From positions 372,001 through 436,000 of the forward strand of contig CDROCS010001778.1 of assembly GCA_977020255.1 (NCBI GenBank): DNA of 64,000 bases. The letters are read 5' to 3'. The notes under the pieces were generated by a model. That model saw only the letters and a list, made by a program, of their open reading frames with translations, did not search any database and was not told the origin of the DNA. Shown piece after piece: positions 103-31,346 of the stretch. Within the stretch, counting starts at the first letter, position 1, and every line of letters starts with the position of its first letter. Made by a program: the position numbers and the translations under genes. Source of the DNA: Obrimoposthia wandeli (taxonomy: Eukaryota).

Positions 103-2553
103 TCAGGTTACTTCTTTGTAACCCAAGTTATCATGACTATGTTTAACCAATTCTGCTCGCACTTCTTCCAATCGGTGCACTTTAATTGTTTGCAATTTGG
201 CCAAAACTTCTGGAGCTTCACTCGTTTCATCTAACGGTTGATTCAACGTCTCCTTAGCTTCACTAATTATCTTTTTTACATTTTCCATACTCGTAGCATT
301 CCTTGCTGCTTCTACATGATCGGTCATAGGTTGTGCGTTACACGTTTTCTCTATTGGTGTCTCATACGCTTCTAGTATTCTATTCATTAAATCATTCATC
401 TCTTCTCTCGAGTGTAGATTTTTCTCTTGTTTTGACAACGTAGATGAATTTGCCATCTTTGTATGTGGTGAATCTTTAATTATTCCCAACATTCGTTCAA
501 ATTTACTATCACTATCTTCAAAATCTATTTCGCGTCGAAGCTCGGTTTCGCGATTCCTATCACTGTCATCGCTTACATAACTAAAATTTCCTTTCGGTTT
601 CGGCGAACTCTCACGACTATTTGTCTTGTCGACATTATTATTATTATATCTACCAGAATTATTATATCTCTCAGCTCCTTGCTGTCCTACGTAATTATTG
701 TATCTCTCAGCTCCTTGCTGTCTATCTGCATAGTTATTATATCTACCTGGTGACTGTTGTCTATCTGTATACTGATTATTCAGTCTCCATGGCTGTGGAG
801 TATATCCACCACCTCTATTCCATGGCAGAGGTGAATTATATCCTCTATAATTGTTTCCAAAATTATTATTACCGAAATTATTATTTCCAAATCTGTTAGC
901 TCCGAACTCTTTACTTCTCGTACAATCTCTCGAATAGTGACCCATTTGTTTACATGTGTAACACATTATTCTCCCTCGAATATCTATCTTATTTTGTTCA
1001 TCTTCGAACTGTACTCGACGACTATTCTGTCTATTATCATAGCGTCCTCTAAAATCATTTCTTCGGAAATTCGATTCAAAACCGCTTCCTCGATTATTGA
1101 ATCTTCCGTCACTATTTCCTGTATTATTTCCAAATCGAGAGTCACTTCGCTCTCCTCTGTTGGCGTTATAATTCCTATCGTCTCCTCTCCAAGGTTGGCG
1201 ATTTCCTGAATTATCTCTATTAAATCTATTCCTGGAATCATCTCTATTTCTATTCCACGAATCATTATTATTTCTACCTCTTGAATCATCTCGATTCCTG
1301 TTCCAAGACTCACTATTATTTCTACCTCTCGAATCATCTCGATTCCTACTTCGGAAATTATCTCTATTTCCGTTACTGGATTCATCTACTTTTTCAAACT
1401 TATTTTGTCCATAATTTCGATTCTGAAAATTACTCGGTTCTGTTTTATTCACGAAGACCTTTGTCTTATCGTCGTCACCTGCAGTCATTGCGTAGATTGC
1501 CAATGCTGCATTATTCTTTATATTTTTCTCAATCTCTCTCGCCTTTCGCACGGCGTTATCAAAATCATTTGTATCCGATACTGCTAATAACACTTTAATA
1601 TCCTTTTTCAATCCTCCTCTAAATATATCTAACAAGACCTCTGCCATTTCATTTTGGTTCCGGTCATTTTCCGCTGCTTGTACTTCTGGAGCTACAGGAT
1701 TACCGTCCTGATTTCTCATTATTCTTCTTGGGTACGCTCTTGCGGCCAAGGTTCTTAAAACATACGCGTATTCATTCACGCCTTCATCATGTTTCTGTTT
1801 CCGTTCTCTCATGAGTCGCTTATTTACTTTGGCTAAGTCTCCTAATACCAATTTTCCAATAAAAGCATTTTCCAACGTTGGCCAGTCTAAACGTTCTGCT
1901 TCTGTCAAATGTTTATACACTTCAAGTGCTAATCCGGTTAAATGTGCCTGTACTCTGACACATTTTTCTTTATCGTTCCATCCTTGAACATCTGCACAAC
2001 TCGAATATTCTGCGAGGAAGTCACAAATACTTTCCTCATCTCCTTTAAACTTTGTAATCTGCAATGATCCTGAAAAGTTGGGTCTCAACGTCGCATTTAA
2101 GGCTTGTGCCAACTGCTCGGCATTCATGTCACCTACATTATTTCCTGCATTATTTTCTGCTTGAGCTCCTGGTTGAGCCATATTTTCAACTATATCTTCT
2201 TCAACTATTTCTTCAATATTATTCAATGGAACTTCCTCAATCACTACTGGATTGGCAATTTCAAATTCTTCTGGGTCTATGTCACCAAATAATTCAGTCA
2301 AATTAAAACTGCCGGTTGAAACCGCTGATTGATCAACGTCTCTTTCTGATACGTTTTCTTCGACTCTAGTTTTTTCTGTTACTTTGTTATCTGTTTGGGG
2401 AACCTGTTCAATTCGGTTAACTTTATTATTATTTATCTCTTCCTTGGGAATCTGACTTTGTCTTCTAGTATTATACGCGGGTCCTTTTCTATTATCCGTT
2501 GTCTTATCAATTATGTATTCGTTTACGATATCAATATACTTATTATTTTTATC
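103..2553 (-). CDS. gag: Ty3/gypsy LTR-retrotransposon Gag with CCHC zinc knuckle and N/R/G-rich regions
   Basis: Retrotransposon gag-like core (FKGDEESICDFL...LENAFIGKL...KQKHDEGVNEYA) and knuckle CYTCKQMGHYSRDC (about 920-966). Lies downstream of a PBS and LTR. The frame is open from 2553; the track starts it at TTG 2301. Any pol would lie left of the window. Confidence 0.9.
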   Translation of the reverse strand, partial: DKNNKYIDIVNEYIIDKTTDNRKGPAYNTRRQSQIPKEEINNNKVNRIEQVPQTDNKVTEKTRVEENVSERDVDQSAVSTGSFNLTELFGDIDPEEFEIANPVVIEEVPLNNIEEIVEEDIVENMAQPGAQAENNAGNNVGDMNAEQLAQALNATLRPNFSGSLQITKFKGDEESICDFLAEYSSCADVQGWNDKEKCVRVQAHLTGLALEVYKHLTEAERLDWPTLENAFIGKLVLGDLAKVNKRLMRERKQKHDEGVNEYAYVLRTLAARAYPRRIMRNQDGNPVAPEVQAAENDRNQNEMAEVLLDIFRGGLKKDIKVLLAVSDTNDFDNAVRKAREIEKNIKNNAALAIYAMTAGDDDKTKVFVNKTEPSNFQNRNYGQNKFEKVDESSNGNRDNFRSRNRDDSRGRNNSESWNRNRDDSRGRNNNDSWNRNRDDSRNRFNRDNSGNRQPWRGDDRNYNANRGERSDSRFGNNTGNSDGRFNNRGSGFESNFRRNDFRGRYDNRQNSRRVQFEDEQNKIDIRGRIMCYTCKQMGHYSRDCTRSKEFGANRFGNNNFGNNNFGNNYRGYNSPLPWNRGGGYTPQPWRLNNQYTDRQQSPGRYNNYADRQQGAERYNNYVGQQGAERYNNSGRYNNNNVDKTNSRESSPKPKGNFSYVSDDSDRNRETELRREIDFEDSDSKFERMLGIIKDSPHTKMANSSTLSKQEKNLHSREEMNDLMNRILEAYETPIEKTCNAQPMTDHVEAARNATSMENVKKIISEAKETLNQPLDETSEAPEVLAKLQTIKVHRLEEVRAELVKHSHDNLGYKEVT

Positions 2554-3384: not shown

Positions 3385-3656
3385 CTGAAACTTATTCTCA
3401 ATTGTCTATATTCTTCTGCTGAAACTTATTCTCAATTTATCTGAAACTTATTCTCAATATCTGAAACTTATTCTTAATATCTGAAACTTATTCTTAATAT
3501 CTGAAACTTATTCTCAATGTCTGAAACTTATTCTTAATATCTGCACTTATTCTATTTACCTGAAACTTATTCTCAATTTTCCAAAACTTATCTGAACTTA
3601 TTCTATTCACCTGAAACTTATTCTCAATTTTCCAAAACTTATCTGAACTTATTCTA
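3385..3656. repeat. Degenerate ~20-bp tandem array (ctgaaacttattctcaatat) in the leader
   Basis: Directly visible repeated ctgaaacttattct core. Confidence 0.9.
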
Positions 3657-3682
3657 CGTGAATTCGCTGTGTCCGACGAGCT

Positions 3683-3701
3683 ATCCTCACTCGGGGCACC
3701 A
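3683..3701 (-). promoter_or_regulatory. Primer binding site complementary to elongator tRNA-Met
   Basis: Minus strand TGGTGCCCCGAGTGAGGAT matches the 3' 19 nt of metazoan elongator tRNA-Met as recalled (...ATCCTCAC[A/T]CGGGGCACCA). It lies 8 nt from the LTR end. Confidence 0.85.
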
Positions 3702-4190
3702 CTTTAATATGTTGGGGTTTCTATACGAAACTTGGTATAGAGCCTCTAAATGTGCGGAGGGCCCCAACGTGAGTTCGATTAGAAGCAGGTCTTAAAGTTG
3801 GTCGTGGCCTACTTAGTGTTATGGTTGCCTAATCTCTTGTACTATCTGAAGGTATTTGATTTGATGTCTCTTAGTCTGAAGGGTGTAAAAACAACTTGTT
3901 CTAATGTAGGAAATTGTTTATTTGTAATTCACGTAACTAACACAACAATACGTTTATGTACGTATTTCTAAAAAGTATGATAAAATTCCTAAAGGACTTC
4001 TGTAAGTCTCTACAAGAAGTGGGGATGAACCACGTATCGATTTTACGTTCAGGTGATTAAGCTTTTTAGGTTTAGTCTTCTTACTTAGGTTGGTTAATCT
4101 ATAACGCAACTCTCTTAATTTTCTTCGCTCCTACTTCTTATCTCTAGCTAAAGTTTCTTGGTTCCTTAACTCTATCTGTGTGTGTTTGAC

Positions 4191-4624: not shown

Positions 4625-4766
4625 ATAGTTTAGTTGGTGTTCTTACCAGTTACTGCTACTAGTGGGACGTCCGGTGTAGGATCCGTAGGTCTTTCGGAAT
4701 CTTCTTCGAAACAGAGCTTATTACTTGTGGGAGGTTGAGTACACGCTTGAATATACTTTGACTTTG

Positions 4767-5176
4767 AATTATCTCCACTGACTTGAACCTTTAATACAAT
4801 CAATTATCTCCACTGACTTGAACCTTTAATACAATCAATTATCTCCACTGACTTGAACTTTTAATACAATCAATTATCTCCACTGACTTGAACTTTTAAT
4901 ACAATCAATTATCTCCACTGACTTGAACTTTTAATACAATCAATTATCTCCACTGACTTGAACTTTTAATACAATCAATTATCTCCACTGACTTGAACTT
5001 TTAATACAATCAATTATCTCCACTGACTTGAACTTTTAATACAATCAATTATCTCCACTGACTTGAACTTTTAATACAATCAATTATCTCCACTGACTTG
5101 AACCTTTAATACAATCAATTATCTCCACTGACTTGAACTTTTAATACAATCAATTATCTCCACTGACTTGAACTTT
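4767..5176. repeat. 35-bp minisatellite (~11.7 copies) inside LTR1
   Basis: Unit aattatctccactgacttgaacttttaatacaatc, near-perfect copies. Confidence 0.95.
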
Positions 5177-5698
5177 TTTGGACACTTGGCTTTTTGGACA
5201 CGAGAACTTAATTGTTCGATTTGTGGTCAGGGAGTTGAATCCCGTATTTGTGATTTGGGTTTCTCCTGTCTGCCTTTTATAGAGGCACTGAACGTCAATC
5301 AATTGACGGCTGCTAACGATTTGGTTCGGAAGATATCGGAGAGGCAAGGAATGGAATGTCAATCAATTGACAGCTGAAATTGAAATTTAGTTAACTGCAC
5401 GAAAATGTGCTTACCTCTTGAAATCCTTGATTGACGTTTTTAATTAACCGTTTAATTTTCTGACTTTCTCCTTAATTAATTTTTTGTCCTTTTGGTTAAT
5501 TAACTCTAAACTTTTATACATTTTCACATAATACACGACCTTCGTGGTCCTCCTAATTTTTACCCTAAATTCCACTAATTTTAATTCTAAAACTTAAAAT
5601 TAATATTTTAATTTAATTTTCAACCTTGCTTTCAAGGATTTTTATTTTAGTATTTAATCGACTAAAATATTTAAATTTCTTAATTCTCAATCCTAACA

Positions 5699-9122: not shown

Positions 9123-12100
9123 CTCTCCAGTAGATTTGCTACCGAAAAAGGACGCCTAGTCGTATGAAGAAGAAGCAACCAGATCATCCAACTCCACAAC
9201 CCCAAAAATTCCGGGAGATTTTGATAACAATACCTATGATGACTTTGTTAAATGTTTTTTTTAAAATATAATTTTTAAAATAATCAAATTTTTGATTTAT
9301 TTCTTTAGTTTATTATATTATTTTATAAATAGTATGATAGTTGAATACATATATATCTTAAAACGTTATAGGTAATACATCTATCCTCCGATTTACGCGA
9401 TGGATTGGTTCCTGAGAACCCTATGTAAATCGAAACTGTGTAAATGGGGACAAAGACAGTATAGAAAACATATGATTGGTTTCAATTTAATAAAAAACGT
9501 GTAAATCGAGATTTAAACCCCATTAAAACTAATATATTGGTTCAAAGAAAAGAGTGTAAATCGAGAAAAATCAAAAGGGAATTTATTTTAAAACCAAACA
9601 GTAATTGAAATAGTTTATGGGGACTTGGATCGATAATTGGCCAATTGGTAATCTTTTGAGATCTAGTCTTTGTCATAAAATCTGTAATCCGTAGTTGTGT
9701 TTCGATTTTTTGATAAATTTTTATATATTTTCTCATAATTGGCTACAACATGATTAAGCTCCCGTCGAAATTGAACAGAAAAATTCAATATCAGGATCAT
9801 GTTGTAGAAAATTATTTCCCATTTCCTTCCAAATTAAAGACCTGTGCGAATTATTTTTGTTGTAAGTACAACTGGTTCTTTCTCAACATTAATGTATCAA
9901 CCAGAATCGTTGTCTACGTTTATCATGTTAACCAAATCATCCTCATCTAGACCATGATCAACCATTAATTCTTCAATATTAACATTTGCAGATTCCTCAA
10001 TGCCTTCACCGCCCGATAACTATGCTAACACGCTTATTTGGGAATATTCGCCCACTATTAGTGCAACAGAATTGTGGATTTCAACCACTTCTGACAATAT
10101 TTTCTTCCAACATGCATTTAGAGGTGATAAATTTATTTCTGAATATATATAATGCTGCAAGCTGACCGCAATTTAAAATTATAAAACCTTTCCAATTATC
10201 AGTTACCTCATAGCCCATTTTACCCCAAAATGTATCGGAAGGTGTGACGTAAAGTGCTTTAAAAGTGGAAATTATTCCCTGATCTAAAGGCTGTATTAAA
10301 CATGTCATATTTGGTGGCAAAAATATAATCTGCACAATTTCATAATTCAAATCTTTTGGATGGTCGGGAGCATTATCCACAAGCAATATGACTTTATATG
10401 ACAGCTATTTTTCAGTCATATGCTTTTTGGCTTCAGGTACAAAACACTTATGAAACCATTCAGTGAAAACTGTTACAGTGACCCATGCCTTCTTGTTGGC
10501 CATCCAATGAATACGAAGGCTTTTCACTTTCATTACTTTAAATGCTCGTGGTGTTAACGATTTATTGATAACCAAGTGCTTTATTATACGATCTCCAGAT
10601 TACCACAGAACAAGAATGTTACACGATCTTTTGCAGCTTTATGCCCGCAAGCTACATTTTGAGATTTGGCTAAATACGTTAACTATGACATTTTTTCACA
10701 ATCAACCGGTCTCATCCGCATTAAACACCTGCTTGGGAGTGTAGGAATTGACCTAAATAGTTTGTGCAAGTTTTGCTGGATATCCTTTTGCAGCTTTTAA
10801 TTCACCGGATGCTAGTTCACCTTTTGTTATAAGATTATATAAAGTTTGATTGCGGTAGTATCGATAGGTATTCTTTTAGTGTTTGATATTCTATCCATAT
10901 CAGTAACGCTTTTTCCAAAGCTTAAATATTAATATACCTCACATGTGAAGAAGTTATCTTATTCGTATCAGAACCGGCTGCTACACTCTTTTTAATATTT
11001 ATTTCATTGTTTTAATCGTAGCTTCATTCATACGATATGATTTGGCAACCACTGTTGAACTCTCTCTACGTTGATCAAAAAAATATTTTTTTGTTTCCTA
11101 AGATTTAACTTTTTGTTTGAGTGTGTTTCCCACTTTCTTTTGACATTATGGTGTTCTAAAAAATTTCATATACATTTTATAAGAAAAAAATTAAAATCTT
11201 ACGTTTTATTACTTACTACTGTTATAAATTTTCTTAAAAAATATGAAGAAAAAAACCAAAACAACTATCACAGGACTGTCTTGAAATTAAACTGGAAACG
11301 TAGGACCACAGATTCTAATTAAACAAATTTAAAAAAACTATGCCTATTAGAATTATACATTTTCAAAAAATATGTAAACATAAACAAAACACAGTGTAAA
11401 AATATACCGTGCTAATCGAGCGATGGGGTGAATTATTCAATTGTTAGGATTAGGTTTTGACTAAAATTAAATAATTAATTGATTTTATAGTGAAATAAAA
11501 ATCCTTGAAAGCAAGGTTATAATTAAAATAAAAAATTATAGTAAAATTAAAATAATCAAAATTAGAAAGGTAAATTAAATATATTAAGGACCACGAAGGT
11601 CATGTGTGATGCGTAAGTATTTATAGAGGTTGAAATCTATTAAAAGGGCCCCAAAAAAGGGATTACGTTAAAGAAGTAAATTAAACGAAGAAGAACGTGA
11701 AAAAGAATTAACTCAATAATAAACAGTTAGACAAGGCCAGCTAGAGAATTCCAAATTAAGAAATTAGGAAAAGTCAACAAAGTCGATTCCAAAGAAGAGT
11801 GCACGCAGAACAAACGAAGCTAATTCCCAAGCAAACAAGAAGAATCCACTAGCGCCATTAGCAATCGATTCTTAGTCACCGAGCCAGCCGCCAGATCTCC
11901 TCAACTCCACAACTCGTTGGAGGTAAGTGGCACTTAACCTAAGTGACTTAGTTAAATTGTTATTTAGGTAACGTATAAAAACAGAGCGAAGGGAAAAGAA
12001 AGCGCACAACAACGAATTAATATTGAAAAGAGAGAAAATCGAAATACGCTCCCAGGAAAATCCCATCGTTGGCCAGCGGAGAATCACGTTCATAGCATCC

Positions 12101-12411
12101 CGAATTAGAAGAAAAGAAAAGTATTAAGTTAATTTTTGGAAATTGAAACTTAATAAAATCTCATCGCTAGGCAGTAGAGAGCGTCGAGTAACGGGAAGTT
12201 ACCTCAAATCAGAAGGGCCGTAAAGGAAATTCGATTCCCAAGTTCGATCGGAGTAACGGAAAGAAACGCCGAGACGGAACAGCAGCTGAAAACAAATCGG
12301 ATCAGACAACGTGAGGAGCCAAGACAGGAGACTCGAATCTAGATCTGGTGGACTAATCGCTATATTAGGAAGAGGTGAGAAGTAGTCAGGTGGAATCATA
12401 TAAGATCGAGT

Positions 12412-13026
12412 CTTGAATTATTATAACATAATTTTGCATTGACGTTTGAAAGTAATCTTATTGAACTTGAATTATTATAACATAATTTTGCATTGAATTT
12501 TGAAAGTAATACTTATTGAACTTGAATTATTATAACATAATTTTGCATTGAATTTCGAAAGTAATCTTATTGAACTTGAATTATTATAACATAATTTTGC
12601 ATTGAATTTCGAAAGTAATCTTATTGAACTTGAATTATTATAACATAATTTTGCATTTAAATTTCGAAAGTAATCTTATTGAACTTGAATTATTATAACA
12701 TAATTTTGCATTGAATTTCGAAAGTAATCTTATTGAACTTGAATTATTATAACATAATTTTGCATTGAATTTCGAAAGTAATCTTATTGAACTTGAAGTA
12801 TTATAACATAATTTTGCATTGAATTTTGAAAGTAATACTTATTGAACTTGAATTATTATAACATAATTTTGCATTGAATTTCGAAAGTAATCTTATTAAA
12901 CTTGAAGTATTATAACATAATTTTGCATTGAATTTCGAAAGTAATCTTATTTGAACTTGAATTATTACAACGTAATTTTGTATTGAATTTTGAAATTATT
13001 ACGAAATAATATTACATTAAATTTGA
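12412..13026. repeat. 54/55-bp minisatellite (~11 copies) inside LTR2
   Basis: Unit ttgaacttgaattattataacataattttgcattgaatttcgaaagtaatctta. Confidence 0.95.
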
Positions 13027-13397
13027 ACTATTGTGGAAGTACAAGAGAAGTTTTGATTTCGTACAAATTATAAACTACTAACAGTCTCTACAAATTAGAG
13101 CCAGTGTTTTTTTGTTGAAATTAATAATTTACTAAAAGCCTCTATAAATTAGAGCAAAATCTTGGTTCGTTATAGTTCTTAAGAAAAAGAAGTTGTCCGT
13201 TTTAAGTAAGGAAGTTGATCTAGCGAATTAGATTGAGATCAAAGAGTTTGATTTAGAAATCTCATTAAAACCACCCTTAAATTAAAATTGATACGTGGTT
13301 CATTCCCACTTGTGGAGAGACTTACAGAAGTCTTAGGAATTTTATTGTCATTTTTTAGAATACGTACTTAAACGTATTGTTTCGTGTTAGTCTAGTG

Positions 13398-15910
13398 CAG
13401 GGTTTCTCAACGGGGGCCACACGAGCCAAACAAAAATAAAAAATTAACACCCCTGTTTTCACTGGGTTAAACACTTTGATGGCTGCACACGTGTGCCACA
13501 AATAAATGTTTGACATGGAATAAAAACAGAGTATAGACTTCTAGATACATATGGACGCGACGCGTCAACTTATTGCGTGGGCGTACCAGCCCAATGAGGG
13601 CCGACGGTAAAACATCATAATATGCCTTTGCAAAAATATCATCGCGCTACAAAAGTTTGTGTGGCGGATGTGGCATGTGCATAATCATCATCCTGAGTAA
13701 TCTATGGACTAAAATCAGTAATTGTGTTGTGTCTCAGCGTGTGAAGAGAAGAGTGTCACACTTCATGTGTACATGCCCAAAATACGCTGCCATTGTAAAA
13801 TGCTACCTACCTAACTCACAAACGTGCACTTGTGTTTGTTTTGAATGAGTCAGTGGTTGATCTCTTTCTTCTTGTTTGTCATTCACCATATCTGAATGTA
13901 CACACATAGGACCTTGTTTTTCTAATTGTCTTTTTGCTCACGTTACCCTTGTAAACAATTTTCAATTCTGATTTTTAGTTGACAATGAGCAGCAAGAAAA
14001 GGTGCAGACAGTATAATTGTGATTATTTACGTTTCGGATTCATTGCAAGCCAAAGTAATTCTCAACTTCCTGAGTGTATTGTCTGTAACACTGTGCACTC
14101 CAATGACTCAATGCGACCATCAAAACTTGAGGCTCATCTCCAAAAGAAGCATCCTGACATTGCAACAAAACCGCGCGCATATTTTACTCAGCTTCGTGAT
14201 CAGAGGACAACAGCCTCAACCCAATTGCGAAAATTTGTGGTTCCTCAGAACTCTACTTCTGGCTTAACAGCATCATATAAAATTGCATATTTAATGGCGA
14301 AACAGGGTAGAGCGCATACACTGGCAGAGCAGTTGATTAAACCTGCTATCTTGGAAGCATTTAATGTTGCCAATGTATCAAATCCACAGTCAGTGCTCGC
14401 ATCGATTCCTCTCTCAAATGACACCATATCGCGACGTATTTCTGATATGGCTGCAAATGTGGAATTCATCATCACAAATGATCTTCACAATTCACAATTC
14501 TCATTGACGCTTGATGAAAGCACATTTTCGAACCAAGCGGTTGTTTTGGCATTTGTCCGTTTCGTCAAGGATAGACAACTCAAGGAAGAGTTGTTGTTTA
14601 TCAAAACTGTGGTAAACACGACAGGCGAATCTGTGTATAACACAGTCTGTAAGTACTTCGAGGATCATGGTATAGACAAGAAAAACATGATATCCATTTG
14701 CACTGATGGTGCCCCATCTATGGTGGGTAAAAAGCAAGGTGTTGTCGGTCGCTTTCTGCAAGACAGGACCATCTTTACAATGCACTGTGTACTTCACTGT
14801 GAGAATTTGGTCGCGAAAGACTTGGGCGGAACAACTTTGATGGATTGTCTTAAAATTGTTGTCTCAGCAATTAACAAAATAAAGGCAAGAGCTTTACAAG
14901 ACCGCCTTTTTCGTGAAGCTTGTCAAGATGAGCACTTTAAATGCTTGCTTTACTATACCGAGGTACGGTGGCTCTCGATGGAAAACTGTCTGTCGCGATT
15001 TGTCAATCTGACAGAGTTGTTGAATTCTTGAGCGAAAGAGATGCTAATCTCACAAACAAACTGATTGAAAGCAAAAGCACCATTTTATATCTGGAGGCAA
15101 TATTTGGAAAACTAAACGAGCTTAACATGGTTATGCAGTCACAAAATTTCAATATTGTTGATGCCAAGCGAATTATCAAATCATTTATGAACAAATTGAT
15201 CGTTTGGGCAGCAAGTATTCGTGCTGGTAACTTCAGTCATTTCCCAAAATTGGCCAACGATGTTTGCAATCCAGATTTGCGAGACATCATTTTAGTGCAC
15301 TTGGAAGTCCTGTATACAAACTTTCAGCTAAGATTTGAGGATTTAATTGTGTTGACTATTCCAGCATATATTGATTGTCTTCACGTCATGACAGTCGATC
15401 AAATCATCGATTTTCCTGAGAACATTCAAATGGAGTTATGTCAAGTTCTCAGAGATGACAAAATGATCAGCATGTCAAAGCAGAATTGGGTGGCAGCATG
15501 GCTGGAAAATTCAGAAATTTATCCGGAAATTTTCAAGAAGGTTTATCCCTTTATTGTTAATCTACCGACGTCGGTGTAAGCTGAGAAGGGGTTCTCAGTT
15601 GTCCTTCATTCGTTCGCAAAACAGCGGATGAATCTCAAGTTGTGTGACAATGCAGAAATCCGTTTACGACTTTCTGAAATTGCTCCAGATTTTACTACAC
15701 TTGTTGGCAAACGCCAAGCGCAAGGGTCACACTAACATTTTTTAAATATAGTTTTCTCATTGATTATCTTTTTGAATGTTTCCATGACAGAATAGTATAA
15801 TTGAAAACAATACGTATACGATGTAATCTTTTTGTCCATAGTAGAGGGGGGCCACAGCAATTTGCTGCAAACTAAAGGGGGCCGTGGTGAAAAAAGGTTG
15901 AGAAACCCTG
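13398..15910 (+). mobile_element. hAT (Buster-type) transposon, 2513 bp
   Basis: Perfect 14-bp TIRs CAGGGTTTCTCAAC. 8-bp TSD GTCTAGTG (13390-13397, 15911-15918) with central TA. Subterminal GGGGGCCAC motifs at both ends. Confidence 0.95.
13982..15735 (+). pseudogene. Buster/ZBED5-like hAT transposase with one frameshift and one premature stop
   Basis: BED-like finger (CIVC...MRPSKLEAHLQKKH), LTLDEST, ICTDGAPSM, HCVLHCENL and EVRWLS motifs, and C-terminal AEKGFS...RQAQGSH. Frameshift near 15000-15030 and TAA at 15577-15579. Confidence 0.9.
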
Positions 15911-16822
15911 GTCTAGTGTATTAATAAATAAACGATTTCCTACAACTAGAAGCATTGTTCTAAACCCTTCAGATTAAGATTAAAACAACAAACCTTTAGA
16001 TAAGAATTGAGACAGGCAACCATAACATTAAGTAGGCCACAACCATCCTTAAGTCCTGCTTCTATAGAACTCACGTTGGGGCCCTCCACATTCAAGAGGA
16101 TCTATAAGTTTCATATAAAAACCCCAACACAATTTAAGTCCCGTGTAAAAGTGAAAACGTGTAAAAATGTACTGTGTAAATCGGGAAATAGGTATATACA
16201 CAAAAAAGTACAATTTATCAATATTGATTTTAAATAGGCTTCATTTTATTTAAAGTAATATTTTCAAAATTCAAATGATTATTAAATATTTGTTTGTTTT
16301 GTTGTAGAACCATTTTTTACATATTTATAATAAAATAGCATATTAGGAATAATTATATTCATAATTCTAATTAAATATTTTATATAATTTCATGTAATGG
16401 AATTTTACTCGCTTACTTTAAAATTTATAAATTCTTTAATTATATATTAAAAAGAAAAAATTTTTAAATATTGGTAATATTAAATTTATTAATTTAAAAT
16501 AATGTCATTGCATTAAAAGTATTTCAGAAATTATATAAATAAGTTCAGCAATTAATTAATTTAATTATTTTCAAATAATGGAATTTGAATATATAAAGGA
16601 GCTGATAGCACAGATTAAGGAAAGTGTGATAAAAAAAGTTAGGAGACCTGCCTAAGAGGTTTTAAATCAGTAGTAAATTTTGATATGGTGAAGTACTGGG
16701 AAAATTAAAAACAAATGCATTTAGGATTTATTTTTTTGTTATTTATAAACGAATATTCTATTAATTTGAGGCTTTATTAATGAATGGAGATTATATTATA
16801 AATTAATTATGTGTTATGCAAG

Positions 16823-18824
16823 TGTTAGGATTAGGTTTTGTTAAAATTAAATAATTAGTTAAATTTATACTAAAATGAAAATCCTTGAAAAAAGGTTAAA
16901 ATTAAATAAAATTAAAATTAAAAATTAAAATGTAAAAAGTTAAAGGAAAATTGAATATTAGAGGACCACGAAGGTCGTGTGAAATGCGTTAATATATATA
17001 ATGTTAGTTTAAAAAAAAAAGGGCAAAAAATTAATTAATAAAAACCAAGGGAAATTAAGTAACGAAGAAATCCAGTCGACGTCAGCAAAAAAGGTAAGCA
17101 CATTTTAAGTGCCAATCGATTACCTACAGTTGCAGGAAATTAGCCAAGCCGAGAAGAAGTGATTGACAGTCTACGTCAACCCAGAAGAGAGAAATTGTCA
17201 ATTTGGACTCAGCCCACTTGTCCGCACACCGAGAAGAAAGAGACTATATAAGTCTACTAAATTAGTAATTAACAAACGGAAAAAACCAAACTAAAGAAAA
17301 AAGGAGCAGAAATCGCGTCAGAGCAACAACGCAGGTGGTTTTATTGAGACTAATCTACTATAGTCCACTAGAAATCGTTCCACAGAAAAGGACTCAACTA
17401 TTCTCCTGACAACCGTGATCGCTTACAACTATTCTCCTGACAACCGTGATCGCTTACAACTATTCTACTGACAACCGTGATCGCTTACAACTATTCTACT
17501 GACAACCGTGATCGCTTACAACTATTCTACTGACAACCGTGATCGCTTACAACTATTCTACTGACTACCCGTGATCGCTCACAGGAGATCCCATCAATTT
17601 AAATAGGTGAGAGTACGCGAAGTACATTTATAAAATTGTGTAAAATATTGGTGAGAGTACGCGAAGTACATTTATAAAATTGTGTAAAATATTGGTGAGA
17701 GTACGCAAAGTACATTTATAAAATTGTGTAAAATATTGGTGAGAGTACGCGAAGTACATTTATAAAATGGTGTAAAATATTGGTGAGAGTATGCAAAGTA
17801 CATTTATAAAATTGTGTAAAATATTGGTGAGAGTACGCAAAGTACATTTATAAAATTGTGTGAAATCATTTTGAATTTACTTACCATTTGAGTTTTTGAG
17901 AACTAAATTTTATTAAAAGAAAAAGTATAAATTTGACCGTTAAAGTTGAAATCATTTTGAATTTACTTACCATTTGAGTTTTTGAGAACTAAATTTGATT
18001 AAAAGAAAAAGTATAAATTTGACCGTTAAAGTTGAAATCATTTTGAATTTACTTACCATTTGAGTTTTTGAGAACTAAATTTGATTAAAAGAAAAAGTAT
18101 AAATTTGACCGTTAAAGTTGAAATCATTTTGAATTTACTTACCATTTGAGTTTTTGAGAACTAAATTTGATTAAAAGAAAAAGTATAAATTTGACCGTTA
18201 AAGTTGAAATCATTTTGAATTTACTTACCATTTGAGTTTTTGAGAACTAAATTTGATTAAAAGAAAAAGTATAAGTTGATTGTTAAAGTTAAAGATATTT
18301 TGAATTTACTTACAATTTGAGTTTTTGAGACGAAATTTGATTGAAAGAAAAAGTATAAATTTGATTGTTAAAGTATAGTTGTTTTACATTAACCCTATTT
18401 TAAAAACGTATTAAAAGTGAAATTGATTTGAAAAATCTATAACTTGAGCTTATTCGCGAGTTAGAGGAACGACTCTAAAATCTCGATTACCCTTAACATA
18501 AAATCGATACGTGGTTCATCCCCACTTGTGTAGAGACTTACAGAAGTCTTAGGAATTTTTACTATACTTTTTAGAAGATACGTACGTAAACGTTTAGTCT
18601 AGTGTGTTACCAATAAACGATTTCCTACATTAAAAAAAACGTTGTTTTACACCCTTCAGAGTAAGAGACATAAAAAACAAACACCTTCAGATAAGAAATT
18701 GAGACAGGCAACCATAACATTAAGTAGGCCACGACCAACTTTAAGACCTGCTTATATTCGAACTCACGTTGGGGCCCTCCGCACACAAGAGGATCTGTAC
18801 AAGTCTCGTATAGAAACCCCAACA
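16823..18824 (+). mobile_element. Solo LTR (LTR3, ~2.0 kb)
   Basis: TGTTAGGA...CCCCAACA termini. Flanks caag/aaag could be a 4-bp TSD with one mismatch. End blocks are homologous to LTR1 and LTR2. Confidence 0.88.
17396..18375. repeat. Three abutting tandem arrays in LTR3 (31-bp, 44-bp and 86-bp units, ~6 copies each)
   Basis: 17396-17582 aactattctcctgacaaccgtgatcgcttac; 17606-17861 ggtgagagtacgcgaagtacatttataaaattgtgtaaaatatt; 17862-18375 an 86-bp unit starting at 17862, 17948, 18034, 18120, 18206. Confidence 0.95.
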
Positions 18825-23443: not shown

Positions 23444-25111
23444 CAGTAAGTTCCGGATTATCCGAACATATATGTTTTTCATTATAATTTTGGTGTTTGA
23501 GTATGCACTGTAGTTAACTTCTTCGTCCTCATTTTCTGAGAGCTCTTCAGGTTCACTTCATGGCTATAGCTCTTTCTATGATTTCATTTCAATAATTGCA
23601 GAAATGTAAAACAGTTTTGTATCTTTAAAAAATTTAGACATGTGGAGCCTATCAAAATTTTTCTCGGAAAATATCAATTTACACGTGAGCGCTTTTTGTG
23701 TCACCTTTTTAGGTTTTCCAATACAGATTGATCCACTGATTGGACAAGTGACGTAACATTGGCGACATACAATAGATTTTTTTCACAAAGCAATCCGAAG
23801 AAACATCTAGAACTTGCATTGAACTCCTCGCTTTGGGCAGGATAATTTTATTGAACAATATCACTGCTTTTTCGGTAACTATTACTCTACTGGTGGGGAT
23901 ATTCTTCTCCCTTAGTGGACGTAACCAAATATACAGTAAGACACAAAGTTTTACAAAAGTACAGGTTTCCATAATCTTTAAAGTCGCCGAGCACTGTCCC
24001 TTTTCCTGCTGATCACGTTTGCAAATCTTCAGCTTTTCAAAAGAAGCTTTTAAAACACAAATTGTGCTGCGCCGAACTACGTTCTTTTCAGAAATGTGTC
24101 CATAGCTGTGTTGGGGTTTCTATTAATCTAAATTCTCGTACGGAGGCCCCCAACGTGAGTTCTGAGGTGATAGGGCTTACATATGGACGTGGCCTACCCA
24201 TTCTAATTTATGGATGTTTGTCTCGCTTATCTGAAGGTTTTCTATTTGTTGTTGTATCGTGTATAAAGATTGGGTTTAGGATAACAAGAGGGACCCCAAA
24301 ACTATTGTTGTGGGGTGTGGAGCTGATGCATTGAGCCGGTTAGGCCGATGTGGATTTCATATTCAAAAAGGGTCTGTGAATAGATAAGAGTTAAAATCAA
24401 CAAAGGTAAGCTGGAATCAATCGACACAGACGATACTTCTCCTCTTAAAAATCCTATGCATATCTCAGAATTTGGATAACCGTCACGTTGGTTCATTCCA
24501 GTTCGTTGTTTTGAATTTCATCCAATTCGATTATACAAAACAGAATTCGCATTGTATGTTAAGGTTAAAATATATTTAATTAAGTACACTGATTTTAAAC
24601 ACACTAAATTGAACTAGCTAACAAATGACTACACACTATGACTTTACAATTTACTCGATAAGGATACTTTTTACTAAACATCGAGTAAACTTTATTGATT
24701 TCCACTTTAACTCTTTCAATTGATGCTTTATGATCCTATATATATATCCAACTTACAGTTTGGAAATCTCGGTTTAACACTTTCAATTATACTTTTATAA
24801 TCGGTTTACTTTAAACTGCCATCTATTCTTTTACAATTTTAACCAACCTTTATAACTTCGTAAAGGATAATTACAATACAACAGGGTAATCTATAGCTTA
24901 AGTTTATCATTGAACGTTAAAACAACTTTTTCTTTCGTTGAATGACATTTTTAACTTAAAAAAAATAATGCATTCCACAAAATAATACATGTTTATTGTA
25001 ATTATTTCTTTTTTATTATTTAATGTATTTATAGACTTTTTTTAAAAATTAAGCATGTTAAGATAGTTGAGAATTTGGATAATCAGAAGCCTGATAATCG
25101 GGAATTTAGTG
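23444..25111 (-). mobile_element. Second pogo/Tigger relic interrupted by LTR4
   Basis: TIRs cagtaagttccggattatccg / rc cactaaattcccgattatcag with TA on both sides. Remnants NVTSLVQSVDQSV (DDE_1) and N-terminal KEKVVLTFNDKLKL. Confidence 0.75.
24109..24883 (-). mobile_element. Shorter related solo LTR (LTR4); right boundary approximate
   Basis: tgttggggtttc...ggcccccaacgtgagttc block homologous to the LTR1-3 3' end. Putative other end is tacaaca. No clean TSD. Confidence 0.65.
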
Positions 25112-25879
25112 TACAAGTATTTCATGTTTTTGTCCCATATCACATCTAATATTTTTTTACTAAATAAACTATTTCATATACGTAAAATAATTATTTTGTG
25201 TAAAAAATGTTTTCTTACCATGTTGATATCTTAAACTCCTAACTAACAGATTTAACATAGTTATTGAACCGTTATTTCATTGAGCTCCATCTCTTAACAT
25301 TAGAGGGGTTGAAGATAGTGGTTGAAAAGCTGGTTCAATTGTAGTTGAATTAGATTTTAAAACTCTTTTATTATTACCAATACACTATCTCTTGAGCATT
25401 GGTATCATTAAAATCAATATCAGAGTACTTTTTATTTGGGACCAACAAAGCATCTTCAGGTGTCAGTGTGCTGAGATAATTATTTACAGAAATAATAATC
25501 TAGATTTTGGGCTTCAAATATTAACAAAAATATATTTATTTCAAAAAAAATAGTAACTGTATTTATGATAAAATGAATTCAAATAAAAATAAATCAGAGG
25601 ACCAAAGACATCTAGTATAGTGGCTAAAAATAACAACGATGATGCTGATGTGTATTTCAAAAGTATAAGTTAAACTACTCCCATTCTCGATCCCCCTATC
25701 TTTAAAATTCTTGAGCTGTGTTCAAAATGTAGTCCTTGTGTTCTGTTTGGACAGAACGGTTCCTTTGCGTATGATTTCAAAGCGGAAAACCTGGGTGATA
25801 GGGATACATGCTAGTATCCTAGCTTATTTGTACATTTGTGTACTATATAGTTTTTAAATCCCGGGACAATTTTTGTAAA

Positions 25880-27300
25880 AATAATTTTTATCGAATAGAA
25901 TTGATGTACATTTGAAAATTATGTTTTTTTCCATCAAATTACGATATTTGTGTCAAGAAATTTCCCCATAGAGTTTAATTTTTTTAAACATTTAAATTAA
26001 CAACAAAAACATTTTTTGTAAAATATTTCTTTCGCAGAACTTTCAATCATACATGGAAAGAAATAATATTTAATTATGCTACTAGATTTACGGAGTTGTC
26101 AAGAAAGATAGCTTGATTTTATTTTATTATTATTGTAAATAAGCAACAGCAATTGATCTATAATAATATGAACTTTGCTATTTTTAAGTCCATACAGTTT
26201 ACAAAGTTATTTCAATATTATTTCAAAATTATTTCTTATTATATTATTAATCGATTAATTAAAATACAGCAAAATGGATGACTTGCAGAAGGATAGCAGA
26301 CAAAATATGAACACTGATCATTTGTCCAGTGTTTCAATTAATGCAGTTGCTGGAGAACGAGAACTCAAGGAGGAATTTGGTGGTATAACAATGCATCGAA
26401 CAACTTTCTTGACCATTTATAAACGGTTTGATGAAGTAGAAAGCATTCTGCGTAAAATTCCACAAGACAGACAATGAAGTGTCAGAACAGAACAAAATAA
26501 GAACATTTTCTACAGCAGATTATCTTGAATCATGCAGAAAGTTAACACTTAATACTGAAACAAGCCCCTCATCAATTTTACGATTATTACATGATCTAAA
26601 GATCAAACCATACATTCTTCAACTTGTCAATAAGTTATTAGCGGCTGATTTTGATTGTCGATTTAAGGTGTGTGATAGATTACTTGGTGTGATCGAGCAG
26701 AACCCTGGTATGATGGACAAAATTTTGTGGAGTGATGAGTCGAAATTTAAATTGAGTGGTACAGTCAATAGACACAATTATGTCTATTGAGCTACAGAAA
26801 ATTCATAAAGTACTATTCCACATCATAGCCAAAGTCCCAGTGTGATGGTAGGCTCGAATATTTTCCAGACAAATTGTGAACTACTTCGTTAATATGTTTT
26901 CCTCTTAAAAATCCTTACTAGTGTTTGTGCAGGATGGTACGTCTTCCCATTTTGCACACATTGTTCAAAACACACTGGATATAATCTGTCCCATCACTGG
27001 AGTGCGGTTCCATTGAATGGACTCCTCATTCTTCCTATTTAACTCCATACAACTTTTATGGGCCTCCCTAAAAGACCGAGTTTTTGCAAGATAACCATAA
27101 ACTCATGATGGTTTGAGATTTTAATTACAAAGGAGGCAGCAATCATTACACCTAATGGAGATCAATGCCTTTATTTTTAGTAAAATACTGATTGATCATT
27201 TGTTCTATTGTCAGTGTTTCAGCTGATTTTTGTAACTTGATTTTTGATATTTGAAAATATTAAATTTCGACTTACAAATTTATCCAACATATGACCAAAT
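25880..27300 (+). mobile_element. mariner-like (maT/rosa-type) transposase relic
   Basis: ILWSDESKFKLSGTVNRHNYVY, then QDG-like and P..P.LTP..F remnants, with multiple stops and frameshifts. Confidence 0.7.
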
Positions 27301-27536
27301 TTCTACTTTTAGGTATCTGTTAAAATTACGAGTGGGTACATGAAAGAATATTGATATACATCTAAATATGGAAAAGATAGAAAGTTATCGTGCAGTAAAA
27401 TTTCATGTATTTTTGGTTAACATCGCCACAACAAAAATAAATTTGCCTTCAGTTAATCAATCAGTTTCGTTATTAGTTAATGTGTACATTATAACGCTAT
27501 AACTAGTATAGATACTTAATTTAAAACAGACTAAAA

Positions 27537-27718
27537 CGATTAGAAGTCATGGGGATGTAACGTCCTCAACTTATTCTCAAACTTTAAATGGGTACGATGT
27601 GTGACTTTCTTCATTGAAGTCGCACGATTTAATACGAATGCCTAGTGAGCCATTTTTTGGTAAGCAGAACTGGCGATGATGGATGAATCAAACATTCAGT
27701 TAGAGTGCCAAATGTCGT
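27537..27718 (+). rRNA. 28S (LSU) rRNA fragment, dispersed pseudogene
   Basis: ctcaacttattctcaaactttaaatgggta and gcctagtgagccattttttggtaagcagaactggcgatg match conserved eukaryotic LSU cores. Only about 180 bp, flanked by TE debris. Confidence 0.85.
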
Positions 27719-27736
27719 TAATGCGAGGGAATGATC

Positions 27737-28508
27737 TGTTAGGGTTCTTTTTTACAATTTTGAGAATCATTCCGGTTATCTTCTAACACGGTACAATTTC
27801 CTCAGCACATTTATGTGAGAAAGGGTATTACGTGTTTGACAGATTGCTCTGAGTTACGTGACTCTATTCTTCAAGTTCCTCGCAGTAGGTACGTCTCTTT
27901 TAGAGGCTCACTTAGCTCTGTGCTGGATCTATGTGGCCTTGTCCTAGGACAGGGGTTCCAAAACATTTTTAGCCGTGAAATCCTTTAAAAAATTCTATAG
28001 CTTGCGGAACACATTTTTTAATTTTTTATGAATGAACCCAGTTTTATCAAACTTTAATGAGACATTAAATATTGTTTTCGAACATAGGACTTTATTTAAT
28101 TTTATGGAACTTTTAAAAATCGTATAGATTGAAAATTACGTAAATAATATAATAGAAAAAACAAAATGTTAAATAACATAAATAAATAAAATACCGACGG
28201 AACCCCTAATTTTTTGGCGGAACCCTAGGGTTACTCGGAACACACTTTGGGAACCCCTGTCCTAGGATATTGGTTTATAAATAGGTTATCTACTTCTGAA
28301 ATCTTGCCTCATTATCTGGAAATTAGAGAATGTGACTTGAGAACTTTTGGGGACTTTTACGTTATCCTATACACAACTCTTTAACAAATCTCGAAAACCT
28401 CCAGAGTCTAAAACATGTTGGCCACATCCATTTGTAAGTCCTATCGCTACAGAACTCACGTTGGGGGCCTCCGTACGAGGATTCTAAGTTTAAAAGAAAA
28501 CCCCAACT
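27737..28508 (+). mobile_element. Short related LTR (LTR5) containing a hAT MITE
   Basis: Starts TGTTAGGG and ends gaactcacgttgggggcctcc...aaaaccccaac. The 3' part is homologous to LTR4. Confidence 0.6.
27950..28259. mobile_element. Non-autonomous hAT (Buster-type) MITE, 310 bp
   Basis: TIRs CAGGGGTTCC(A/C)AAA and 8-bp TSD TCCTAGGA (27942-27949, 28260-28267). Confidence 0.92.
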
Positions 28509-28729
28509 AATAACAAATGTCAAATAATATTCTGCTCATTACTTAGTCGGGGGAAAAAGTAAAAATCAACTCTTGACAAAATTTAACTTAATGAAAAAAT
28601 CCAATCTTTGATAAGATAAATATTTGAAAAAAAGGAATTACTTATAAATTATAAATGCATAAAATACATTTGCAATTCTGAGTTGAGTTATCAGGAGAAA
28701 GTACGAGTCACAGTGGTTCAATGGATACA

Positions 28730-29600
28730 CTTGCAAATTTTGACTTATCGCTCAACAAAATATTGTCCATCATGTTGGAGCTTTACTCGATGATACAAAG
28801 TAGTCTATCACACACCTCAACTCGACGATCAAAATCATCCTATCATAGCTTGACGACAAGTTGAGGAATGTATGATTCAGTCTTTAGATCATGTAACGAT
28901 CGTAAAATTGATGAGCGGTTTGTTCCAGTTAAACGTGATAACCTTTTCTAAGATTCAGCTCCAACAGTTTTGTTGCTAATCTGCTGTAGAAAAGGTCTTG
29001 TTTTGTTCTGTTCTGACACTTCATAGTCTGTCTTGTGGAATTTTATGCAGAATGCTTTCTACTTCATCAAACCGTTTATAAATGGTCAAGAAAGTTGTTC
29101 GATGTATTGTTATACCACCAAATTCCTCCTTGAGTTCTCGTTCTCCTGCAACTGCATTAATTGAAACACTGGACAAATGATTAGCGTTCATATTTTGTCT
29201 GCTATCCTTCTGCAAGTCATCCATTTTGCTGTATTTTAATTAATCGATTAATAATATAATAAGAAATAATTTTGAAATAATATTGAAATAACTTTGTAAA
29301 CTGTATGGACTTAAAAATAGCAAAGTTCATATTATTATAGATCAATTGCTGTTGCTTATTTACAATAATAATAAAATAAAATCAAGCTATCTTTCTTGAC
29401 AACTCCGTATATCTAGAAGCATAATTAAATATTATTTCTTTCCATGTATGATTAAAAGTTCTGCAAAGGAAATATTTTAAGAACAAAAAATTGTTGTTAA
29501 TTTTGTTAAGAAAAAATTAAACTTTATGGAGAAATTTCTTATACAAATATCGTAATTTGATGGAAAAAAACATAATTTTCAAATATAAATCAATTTATTC
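28730..29600 (-). mobile_element. Inverted partial copy of the mariner-like element at 25880-26760
   Basis: Reverse complement aligns with 25880-26760. ORF 29021-29224 is nearly identical to 26274-26477. Confidence 0.9.
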
Positions 29601-31346
29601 AAATGAACTTAAAATTAACAAAACCTCATATTATTATAGTTCTATACTTATCAATTAAAAAAACTTTGCAATATTTCAGGACGAGGAGTCTAAGTCTATT
29701 CAATAAACACTCAGAGTACCATTTTAATTTATTCAAATGAATGTGAACGCATATTTTCACAAATGACTCAAAGTAATATGGTTTCTGCACGTTTGGTCTT
29801 AAGATTAGTTCGTCTACTTCTGTTACCCACAAACAAACGCAACAAGAAAATGCGTTCAAAATCATTTTTCCAATGAAATACACATATCAATCTGGAATGC
29901 CACATCAAGTTTTCTTACTTTGGTAACAAATATAATTTTTATTTAAAGAAAATTTTCAAATTTCATCATAAAGAGTTTGGAATAGACATTTTTTATATTG
30001 ATTGTAACATTCCCAAAAGTGGCTTATAAGTTTCTTATTTTCACAACTACAAGAATCAAAAATAAAACATTTAAAATAAATATATGAGAACGAAATAATG
30101 TTTTATCCTCTTGTTAAATTGATTCCTTTATAATCGATGTTTCTTAAATAAAATTTTGATTGAAATTAGTGTGATTTTCAAAAATGCATATTTTTATTGA
30201 AGACTGAGTCGATTTTGCAGTAGTCTTTTTAGACCGAAAATCAAAACATTAACTTTTCGATTTTCATATTTACGTAAATTTCTCATATTTATTATATTAA
30301 AAGTTAAAATTCACTGAAATTTTGAATTAAATTTTGCGTGAAATAACTGAAACATATTTTAATAAAAGAAACCAAATTATTTTTATTATTATTTAGATTA
30401 ATTATGATTATTTTCCTTTTCTTATTTTACATGAATGTTAAGGTTTAAAATAGTTTATTTTACTATTATTTTTCTGAATTTCAAGTCAGTAATAGACCAA
30501 CCATACATTTTAAAATACACTAATAGCTTTATAATTAAAAAGTTGTATCGAAATGAAATGCTAATCATGCCTTCATAAAGTAATCTGAAAATTTAGAACA
30601 CTGAAATTAATTTTAAACTTATTATATTTAAAGTCTTGCAAATTACGATTCATAATTTCCGATTGAAATCCAATTTTCGCATCTTTGGTTTGATCGACAT
30701 AATATATAAGAGTATAAACAAACTTAGGCGGATATGAGAGAATTAATCCATCAAATAGTTGACACAATTATCTATCACAGACTGTTAAGTTCAACTGGGA
30801 AAAAAACAAGACCTAACCACCAATTAATTAAGTCAGTCTGTTGAACAAACCACAGTGGACCGACAACCAAGTAAGAAAGGATTAATACATTAATAAAATA
30901 TTTTAATTTTAATCGAAAATGTCCAGAAATCAGCGCTGATTTCCCAAACACACACACAATTGTCATTGCGATTTCCAGCGACACGCGTATAGACAGTAAA
31001 ACAAATTGGGAAATTTGTGATGACAATTACAAACGGCACACAGAAACACACGACTGTTAATGAGGAAGCCAATGAAATCTGACGATGATTATTGTAATCT
31101 TGGAAATTGATTTTTACCCAAGATTACAGTCAGTTTGCAAAGTGTTCCCGGCAAATTTACAGTGGCGAATTATTTTTAATCAACTAACACAACACACTGC
31201 ACAAAACACACTCTTTCACACACACACGCAGTTCTTCGTCAATCGCACGCGTCCAAACACAAACCGGTCTTGCATTTTGCATCCACATTTCTGTCTGCAT
31301 GCTGACGCATATATCACAGCTATCTCGTAATAATCTCCCATAGGGC

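Follow-up and report, generated by a model that had tools for sequence, protein, structure and literature searches.

Two conserved U5 boxes complementary to elongator tRNA-Met upstream of a full-length primer-binding site in a giant gypsy retrotransposon

Within a 64,000-nt stretch of the Obrimoposthia wandeli genome (the window), a giant and very abundant Ty3/gypsy LTR retrotransposon of 23.5 kb carries two short U5 motifs, here called box A and box B, upstream of a full-length primer-binding site (PBS). Together the three sites tile the host elongator tRNA-Met (eMet) at nt 38-47 (box A), 48-56 (box B) and 58-76 (PBS), with box A abutting box B on the tRNA. We establish the complementarity of these sites, their conservation and the identity of the primer. 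The feature is real, and from its sequence it belongs with HIV-1's primer activation signal (PAS) plus that virus's anticodon-stem contact and not with the split PBS of Ty3, the pairing itself being something that we infer. The original prediction, made from the window alone, described the PBS and the T-arm motif; box A was not part of it, nor was the overlap of box B with a PBS-masking strand and an LTR-end hairpin, and both are new here.

The element and its primer

The element was recognized by its LTR pair, by the 4-bp target duplication that flanks its 23.5 kb, and by the order of gag followed by protease, reverse transcriptase (RT), RNase H and integrase. Its 3' LTR lies outside the window, upstream of it (L062:4169-2146), and is 98.1% identical to the 5' LTR. 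In full, the coding order after gag is fusion glycoprotein, BIR, RING, two proteases, RT, RNase H, integrase and phosphatases. The landmarks of the window copy are as follows.

5698-3710, minus strand: 5' LTR, from the comparison of the LTR pair
3922-3917, minus strand: candidate poly(A) signal, from the sequence, which would put both boxes in U5
3702-3709, minus strand: conserved spacer of 8 nt between the LTR end (3710) and the PBS, partly selected on in two of the loci samples
3701-3683, minus strand: PBS, complementary to host eMet nt 58-76
103-2553, minus strand: gag-like ORF with a CCHC zinc knuckle, from ORF reading

The fusion glycoprotein of the polyprotein is chuvirus-like, a later ORF has two dual-specificity phosphatase domains (L061 and L062, upstream of the window), and the gag ORF of the window copy ends about 250 nt ahead of the polyprotein ORF. 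A candidate TATA box at 5281-5275 is followed by near-perfect tandem arrays, of which each LTR copy has its own (35-nt units at 4662-5282 of the window; 31-, 44- and 86-nt units at 17364-18376).

An elongator tRNA-Met is told by a G1-C72 pair, by T54 and by an anticodon stem in which no three G-C pairs follow one another. Searching the host's own genome with a pattern retrieved 60 matches, 59 of them in two tandem arrays, and ARAGORN called the host matches tRNA-Met(CAT) with G1-C72 and T54, which identifies these genes as elongators; contrasted with the host initiator (iMet) gene, the host eMet gene bears all three marks. The T arm of the host gene reads as had been predicted, with the complement of a 12-mer described below at nt 48-59. 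The PBS had been expected to cover eMet nt 58-76, and it matches the host gene at 19/19 nt, as it does in 29 of 30 sampled copies. Its first 17 nt have 5,408 exact matches in the host genome (control, 0). In contrast, the iMet gene (3 matches) differs at its 3' end, and the PBS does not fit it. The two host genes therefore bear out the earlier expectation, and the sequences support elongator and not initiator tRNA-Met as the primer. The usual spacer between an LTR and its PBS is 2 nt, and the 8 nt found here imply unusual end trimming. In the open-access literature we found no description of natural eMet priming, only of engineered HIV, and the available portions of PMC13191261, PMC8532177 and PMC11410931 contain nothing on elongator tRNA-Met as a primer.

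Two boxes against the T arm and the anticodon stem

The boxes of the window copy, their weaker repeats and the four further box-bearing LTRs of the window are listed here.

3776-3768, minus strand: box B, a PAS-like U5 motif complementary to eMet nt 48-56
3853-3844, minus strand: box A, a U5 motif complementary to eMet nt 38-47 (the anticodon stem's 3' strand plus variable loop)
3657-3666, minus strand: second box B copy, weaker and variable, on the downstream side of the PBS (nt 48-57 with one G.U pair; duplex -12.7 kcal/mol)
3875-3882, minus strand: subfamily-limited upstream repeat of box A (nt 39-46; column conservation 0.37-0.85)
16067-16075, plus strand: box B; its LTR (about 11440-16129) is interrupted by a DNA-transposon-like insert, has box A as one-mismatch variants only and lacks a PBS
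18683-18768, plus strand: solo LTR of about 16823-18824 with both boxes, A at 18683-18691 and B at 18760-18768
24154-24238, minus strand: boxes A (24238-24230) and B (24162-24154) in an LTR end of a diverged subfamily, no PBS
28397-28460, plus strand: LTR end of a diverged subfamily, no PBS; box A at 28397-28405 carries one mismatch, and box B is at 28452-28460

The motif first proposed was a 12-mer about 60 nt upstream of the PBS; it lies at 3779-3768 on the minus strand, with 66 nt (3767-3702) between it and the PBS. Its claimed complementarity to nt 48-59 holds in the host gene but not across the family: the extension of box B to 3779, i.e., to nt 59, occurs in this subfamily only, the 12-mer is exact in 12/103 copies and in 0/26 diverged ones, and the 9-nt core alone is family-wide. 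That core was said to recur in five LTRs, and all five sites are exact; they are the only exact ones in the window, each 45-58 nt before an LTR end. Just one of these five copies, that at 3701, retains a PBS, the other four being solo, split or partial LTRs, and the block that the five share extends past the tRNA match into a G-run and CCTCC. When one mismatch is allowed, the window holds 10 sites against 6.3 expected, which is chance level; as such, the evidence for box B lies in its position and conservation.

Conservation was assessed on 110 loci picked on the PBS and spacer and not on the boxes (30 of 5,408, 50 of 755 and 30 of 32, the last set being picked on the LTR end too). Adding the window copy gave 104 distinct segments, and the removal of the mis-centred, non-family L272 left 103 copies in 49 clusters, all of one lineage in one genome. 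Box B is exact in 74 of the 103 and within one mismatch in 95. Its weighted conservation is 0.92 (columns 0.81-0.98) against a U5 mean of 0.65, so the 9-mer does stand out across copies as had been anticipated, with a 3' flank that is nearly as conserved. Among the 102 of 103 copies that could be anchored, nt 56-49 of the tRNA are paired in 98-102 copies and nt 48 in 88, and the match breaks at both edges (mismatch at nt 57 in 72/102, at nt 47 in 96/102), figures that come from anchoring on the best match, which favours matches inside the box. The 5' edge of box B falls where the PBS takes over. A motif related to the second copy of box B is present in 76/103 copies, often with a mismatch.

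Box A was first seen as a peak of conservation, ahead of any comparison with the tRNA. It is an exact match of 10 nt, the 9-mer at 3853-3845 complementing nt 39-47 and the next base extending it to nt 38, and that 9-mer is the best conserved one away from the LTR end. In an alignment-free count of U5 9-mers it ranks first (0.73), followed by the box B block (0.60-0.64). Exact copies of box A occur in 85/103 segments, falling to 13/26 among the diverged ones, and 100/103 have it within one mismatch; each of nt 39-47 is paired in 98-103 of the 103, and nt 48 is mismatched in 102. Both boxes are found within one mismatch in 92/103 copies. The tandem repeats of the leader (window 3400-3660) hold about ten copies of the box A core, six of which match eMet nt 38-44 exactly; these may be extra tRNA sites, Gag sites or chance matches.

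We set these matches against several controls. Among 20,000 shuffled tRNAs, one such site was found in 31 and two in none, and the host iMet gave no such site against U5. A set of 76 real decoys, taken from an Rfam tRNA search of the genome and mostly of bacterial type, gave one site in two cases (a bacterial-type Lys and a broken Met copy) and two sites in none. Elsewhere in the same genome, none of the 30 initiator-type PBS sites read (of 377) carries box A, box B or a U5 box for its own T arm, so the boxes are not generic U5 motifs in this genome. For unmodified RNA, the duplexes are predicted at -40.4 (PBS), -12.6 (box B) and -13.5 kcal/mol (box A), the latter two against 3.4 and 1.7 kcal/mol of tRNA structure lost, in a calculation that leaves modified bases and loop closure aside. 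A 7-pair contact right after the PBS was dropped, having only -4.6 kcal/mol.

The 30 initiator-type sites (L352-L381; 377 initiator-tRNA PBS-like sites in all) fall into 13 groups, two of which, as candidate elements, have Ty1-like boxes matching the initiator tRNA 21-36 nt downstream of the PBS. Many of the top tRNA matches are of bacterial type with an encoded CCA (contigs of L098-L127 and L185-L204), which points to bacterial DNA in the assembly.

Predicted folding and the initiation complex

Two predicted RNA structures involve box B.

3773-3761, minus strand: strand that would pair with the PBS as long as the RNA is free (closed state), from the MFE fold of the window copy; overlaps box B
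3711-3768, minus strand: predicted terminal multi-stem hairpin of U5 (open state), which sets box B beside the PBS

Folding was carried out on 35 copies, namely the window copy and 34 of the 49 cluster representatives, 15 having been excluded mostly for deletions or noisy indels. The PBS is more than 40% paired to upstream RNA in 23/35, and the RNAalifold consensus holds the helix between 3773-3761 and the PBS, with no covariation among the 35 aligned copies. The U5 hairpin folds well alone (z -3.9; 0/200 shuffles), with 90.8% of cells paired and no compensatory change in its outer stems across copies; 16 both-side changes in the inner stem were discounted as covariation, being mostly alignment shifts. 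When the PBS is blocked in the fold, the G-run pairs with the LTR end in 21/35 copies and box B is mostly unpaired (median 0.86). T-stem symmetry has the side effect that five of the nine letters of box B can also pair with the PBS. Box B overlaps both the predicted PBS-masking strand and the hairpin at the LTR end, which may account for part of its conservation.

We consider it likely, on these sequence grounds, that the primer pairs with the PBS and both U5 boxes in an extended PAS-like initiation complex, and that box B doubles as a switch that masks the PBS; pairings, switch and activation are what we infer. In the free RNA, box B and the G-run behind it would mask the PBS, as predicted. 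Chaperoned loading of the tRNA 3' end would displace the masking strand, after which the G-run would close the LTR-end hairpin, with box B left unpaired at a distance of about 9 nt from the PBS. Box B could then take up the T-arm strand that had been freed, and box A the variable loop and the strand of the anticodon stem, such that three contacts would select the primer and time the start of minus-strand synthesis. The label PAS-like given to box B at the outset thus stands as far as sequence, conservation and a second box tiling the next tRNA segment are concerned, and is conjectural as to the pairing.

One alternative, which we regard as unlikely, is that box B is kept only for intramolecular folding, masking the PBS and closing the U5 hairpin, with its tRNA match a by-product of T-stem symmetry. 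The MFE pairing of 3773-3761, its recurrence in 23/35 copies and in the consensus, and conservation that runs on through the G-run would all fit. However, the masking helix leaves nt 56-54 of the tRNA unused, and these are paired in 101-102 of the 102 anchored copies; the three 5' letters of box B, its best conserved, are therefore left unexplained, as is box A. In addition, position 3761, paired in the closed helix, varies (conservation 0.48).

It is quite improbable that the boxes bind the tRNA for another step, bridging genome ends or two RNAs in minus-strand transfer or dimerisation, as might occur if the transcript ended downstream of them. With a poly(A) signal at 3922-3917, the transcript would normally terminate ahead of either box, and the predicted hairpin places box B beside the PBS. 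In favour of bridging, box A lies 64 nt past this signal, which is a candidate one, and in Gypsy an 11-nt second site against the anticodon and T stems bridges the RNA ends, according to the available part of PMC1635307. Very improbable is the idea that the boxes are protein sites (for Gag, integrase or 3'-end factors) or relics of a captured tRNA that match by chance or history: a protein-binding motif might recur in the leader as the core of box A does, and other U5 blocks (3811-3804, 3793-3787) are about as conserved with no tRNA match, but two sites arose in no shuffled tRNA, the junction of nt 47 and 48 is where the box edges lie, a copied antisense tRNA would show A, B and PBS in the opposite order, and the initiator-type sites lack the boxes.

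Known systems and searches for relatives

In HIV-1, the PAS pairs with tRNA nt 48-55 and is masked until loading (PMC3675109, PMC1865047), a PAS has been reported for all retroviral genomes (PMC11181671), and the HIV model is contested (PMC3185550), as stated in the portions of these papers that were available. The arrangement here shares with it a U5 motif upstream of a full-length PBS, directed against the 5' strand of the T arm (48-55 in HIV, 48-56 here), and masking by intramolecular pairing, which here is predicted only. It differs in belonging to a gypsy element and to eMet, in being known from sequence, in having the PBS itself and not a leader stem as predicted masking partner, and in a second perfect box that adjoins on the tRNA. 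HIV-1 nt 142-148 contact the anticodon stem's 3' strand as well as the variable loop (PMC3185550, in part). Box A targets the same tRNA region, likewise upstream of the PBS, but whereas the HIV-1 contact has 7 nt and lies between PAS and PBS, box A has 9-10 nt and lies 68 nt upstream of box B. Rous sarcoma virus, primed by tRNA-Trp, has a U5-IR stem that is an LTR-end hairpin beside the U5-T-arm contact. Our element resembles it in placing a probable U5 contact with the T arm beside a predicted hairpin of this kind and differs in that the other is a retrovirus with another tRNA; the interaction is named in the part of PMC3185550 available.

Split sites or multi-box tRNA contacts are described for Ty3, Ty1 and Gypsy (PMC5371799, PMC1635307), and in Drosophila Gypsy a short 5' PBS of 11 nt is joined by a second site at the RNA 3' end targeting the anticodon and T stems (PMC1635307; both sources in part). 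The present element is like these in being an LTR retrotransposon with, probably, more than one tRNA contact. In contrast to the short, acceptor-stem-only 5' PBS of Ty3 and Gypsy, its PBS spans 18-19 nt (the full 19 in 29 of 30 copies), with both boxes within 150 nt upstream. A second eMet site near the RNA 3' end was not found in the two stretches scanned: neither the 430 nt ahead of the 3' LTR nor the LTR upstream of 3882 has a match longer than 7 nt. In its Ty3/Gypsy sense, the term bipartite does not suit this priming, given a full-length PBS and additional boxes located in U5.

By layout the element resembles Burro/GYPSM1 of planarians, as compared by description (PMC6431247, in part): both are giant, present in thousands of copies, and encode a fusion glycoprotein in frame ahead of PR-RT as well as BIR and RING. 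In our element an env-like fusion domain stands between gag and pol, the cargo includes BIR and RING, and the length exceeds 20 kb; what sets the element apart is its 23.5 kb with 2-kb LTRs and its phosphatase cargo. The best matches of the RT region are 42-57% identical, none of them named Burro. The portion of the main text of PMC6431247 available mentions neither tRNA nor PBS, and in the main texts of the open-access literature we found no description of Burro priming or of a U5 PAS in a gypsy element.

Support for the PAS model comes mostly from HIV-1, and the model is disputed since the motif overlaps an RNA helix. Here two boxes are kept across subfamilies that are 40-60% alike in U5, tiling the primer end to end, which suggests a priming device common to retroviruses and gypsy elements. 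Because box A is under no predicted overlapping constraint, it offers a cleaner test case for the model, and thousands of natural copies would, if the reading is true, allow a comparative test of its generality.

Our searches also covered primer switches and unrelated eMet-primed elements. A first genome search for family members with another primer gave 0 matches. A further search gave 233 candidates (control 35), and the 30 that were read comprised 2 decayed family copies and 28 unrelated AT-rich repeats or chance matches. No natural primer switch in the family, and hence no switch-linked covariation of boxes and tRNA, was found by these genome searches. An RT seemingly 62% identical (L234) proved to be a decayed copy of the same family and not a separate relative. 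A scan of IMG/VR for box B plus PBS gave 57 matches, about chance by estimate. A metagenome PBS scan gave 22 matches, of which 15 high-GC ones were set aside as likely chance and seven were read in detail. In two related ones with the same 19-nt PBS (L337, L349), box B shows one G.U change and sits within a small hairpin, as predicted by folding, and a further box of 9-10 nt is complementary to the anticodon arm, nt 27-36. L334 and L351 have 8 nt of box B 234 nt upstream, L343 offers only 125 nt of upstream sequence, and L344 and L350 have nothing comparable upstream of the PBS. Across the four independent low-GC PBS-bearing groups, all putative LTR elements, box B is thus clear in one, reduced to 8 nt far upstream in one, and box A is in none; the L337/L349 boxes would count for tRNA pairing and the patchiness against it. 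A broader reading is one that we hold only tentatively and think rather doubtful, namely that the primer is unwound from nt 38 to 76 on three tiled sites, that a box B switch hides the PBS until eMet is loaded, and that the T-arm box is found again in eMet-primed elements unrelated to this one, so that the PAS would be a device general to LTR retroelements.

A few further observations concern the other end of the element and the rest of the window. Among 30 of 1,794 3' junctions, chosen on the last 6 nt (L382-L411), 29 lack a polypurine tract (longest purine run 4-5 in the last 30 nt). A conserved block of about 50 nt is common to these 29, the corresponding site of the window element being L062:4170-4225, just ahead of its 3' LTR; the block could form a hairpin with loop-tail pairing, and simple folding of it gives no significant result (z 0.3). 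Ten nt upstream of the 3' LTR there is a 7-nt sequence complementary to eMet nt 65-71. A 14-nt motif inside the LTR (4032-4045, 13283-13296, 18499-18512) also forms the start of the block found in place of the polypurine tract. One diverged LTR end is flanked on both sides by long inverted repeats at 25871-29623 (877 nt, 88%), which probably represent a foldback or TIR element, and 31974-38858 holds a type IV collagen gene with very long exons.
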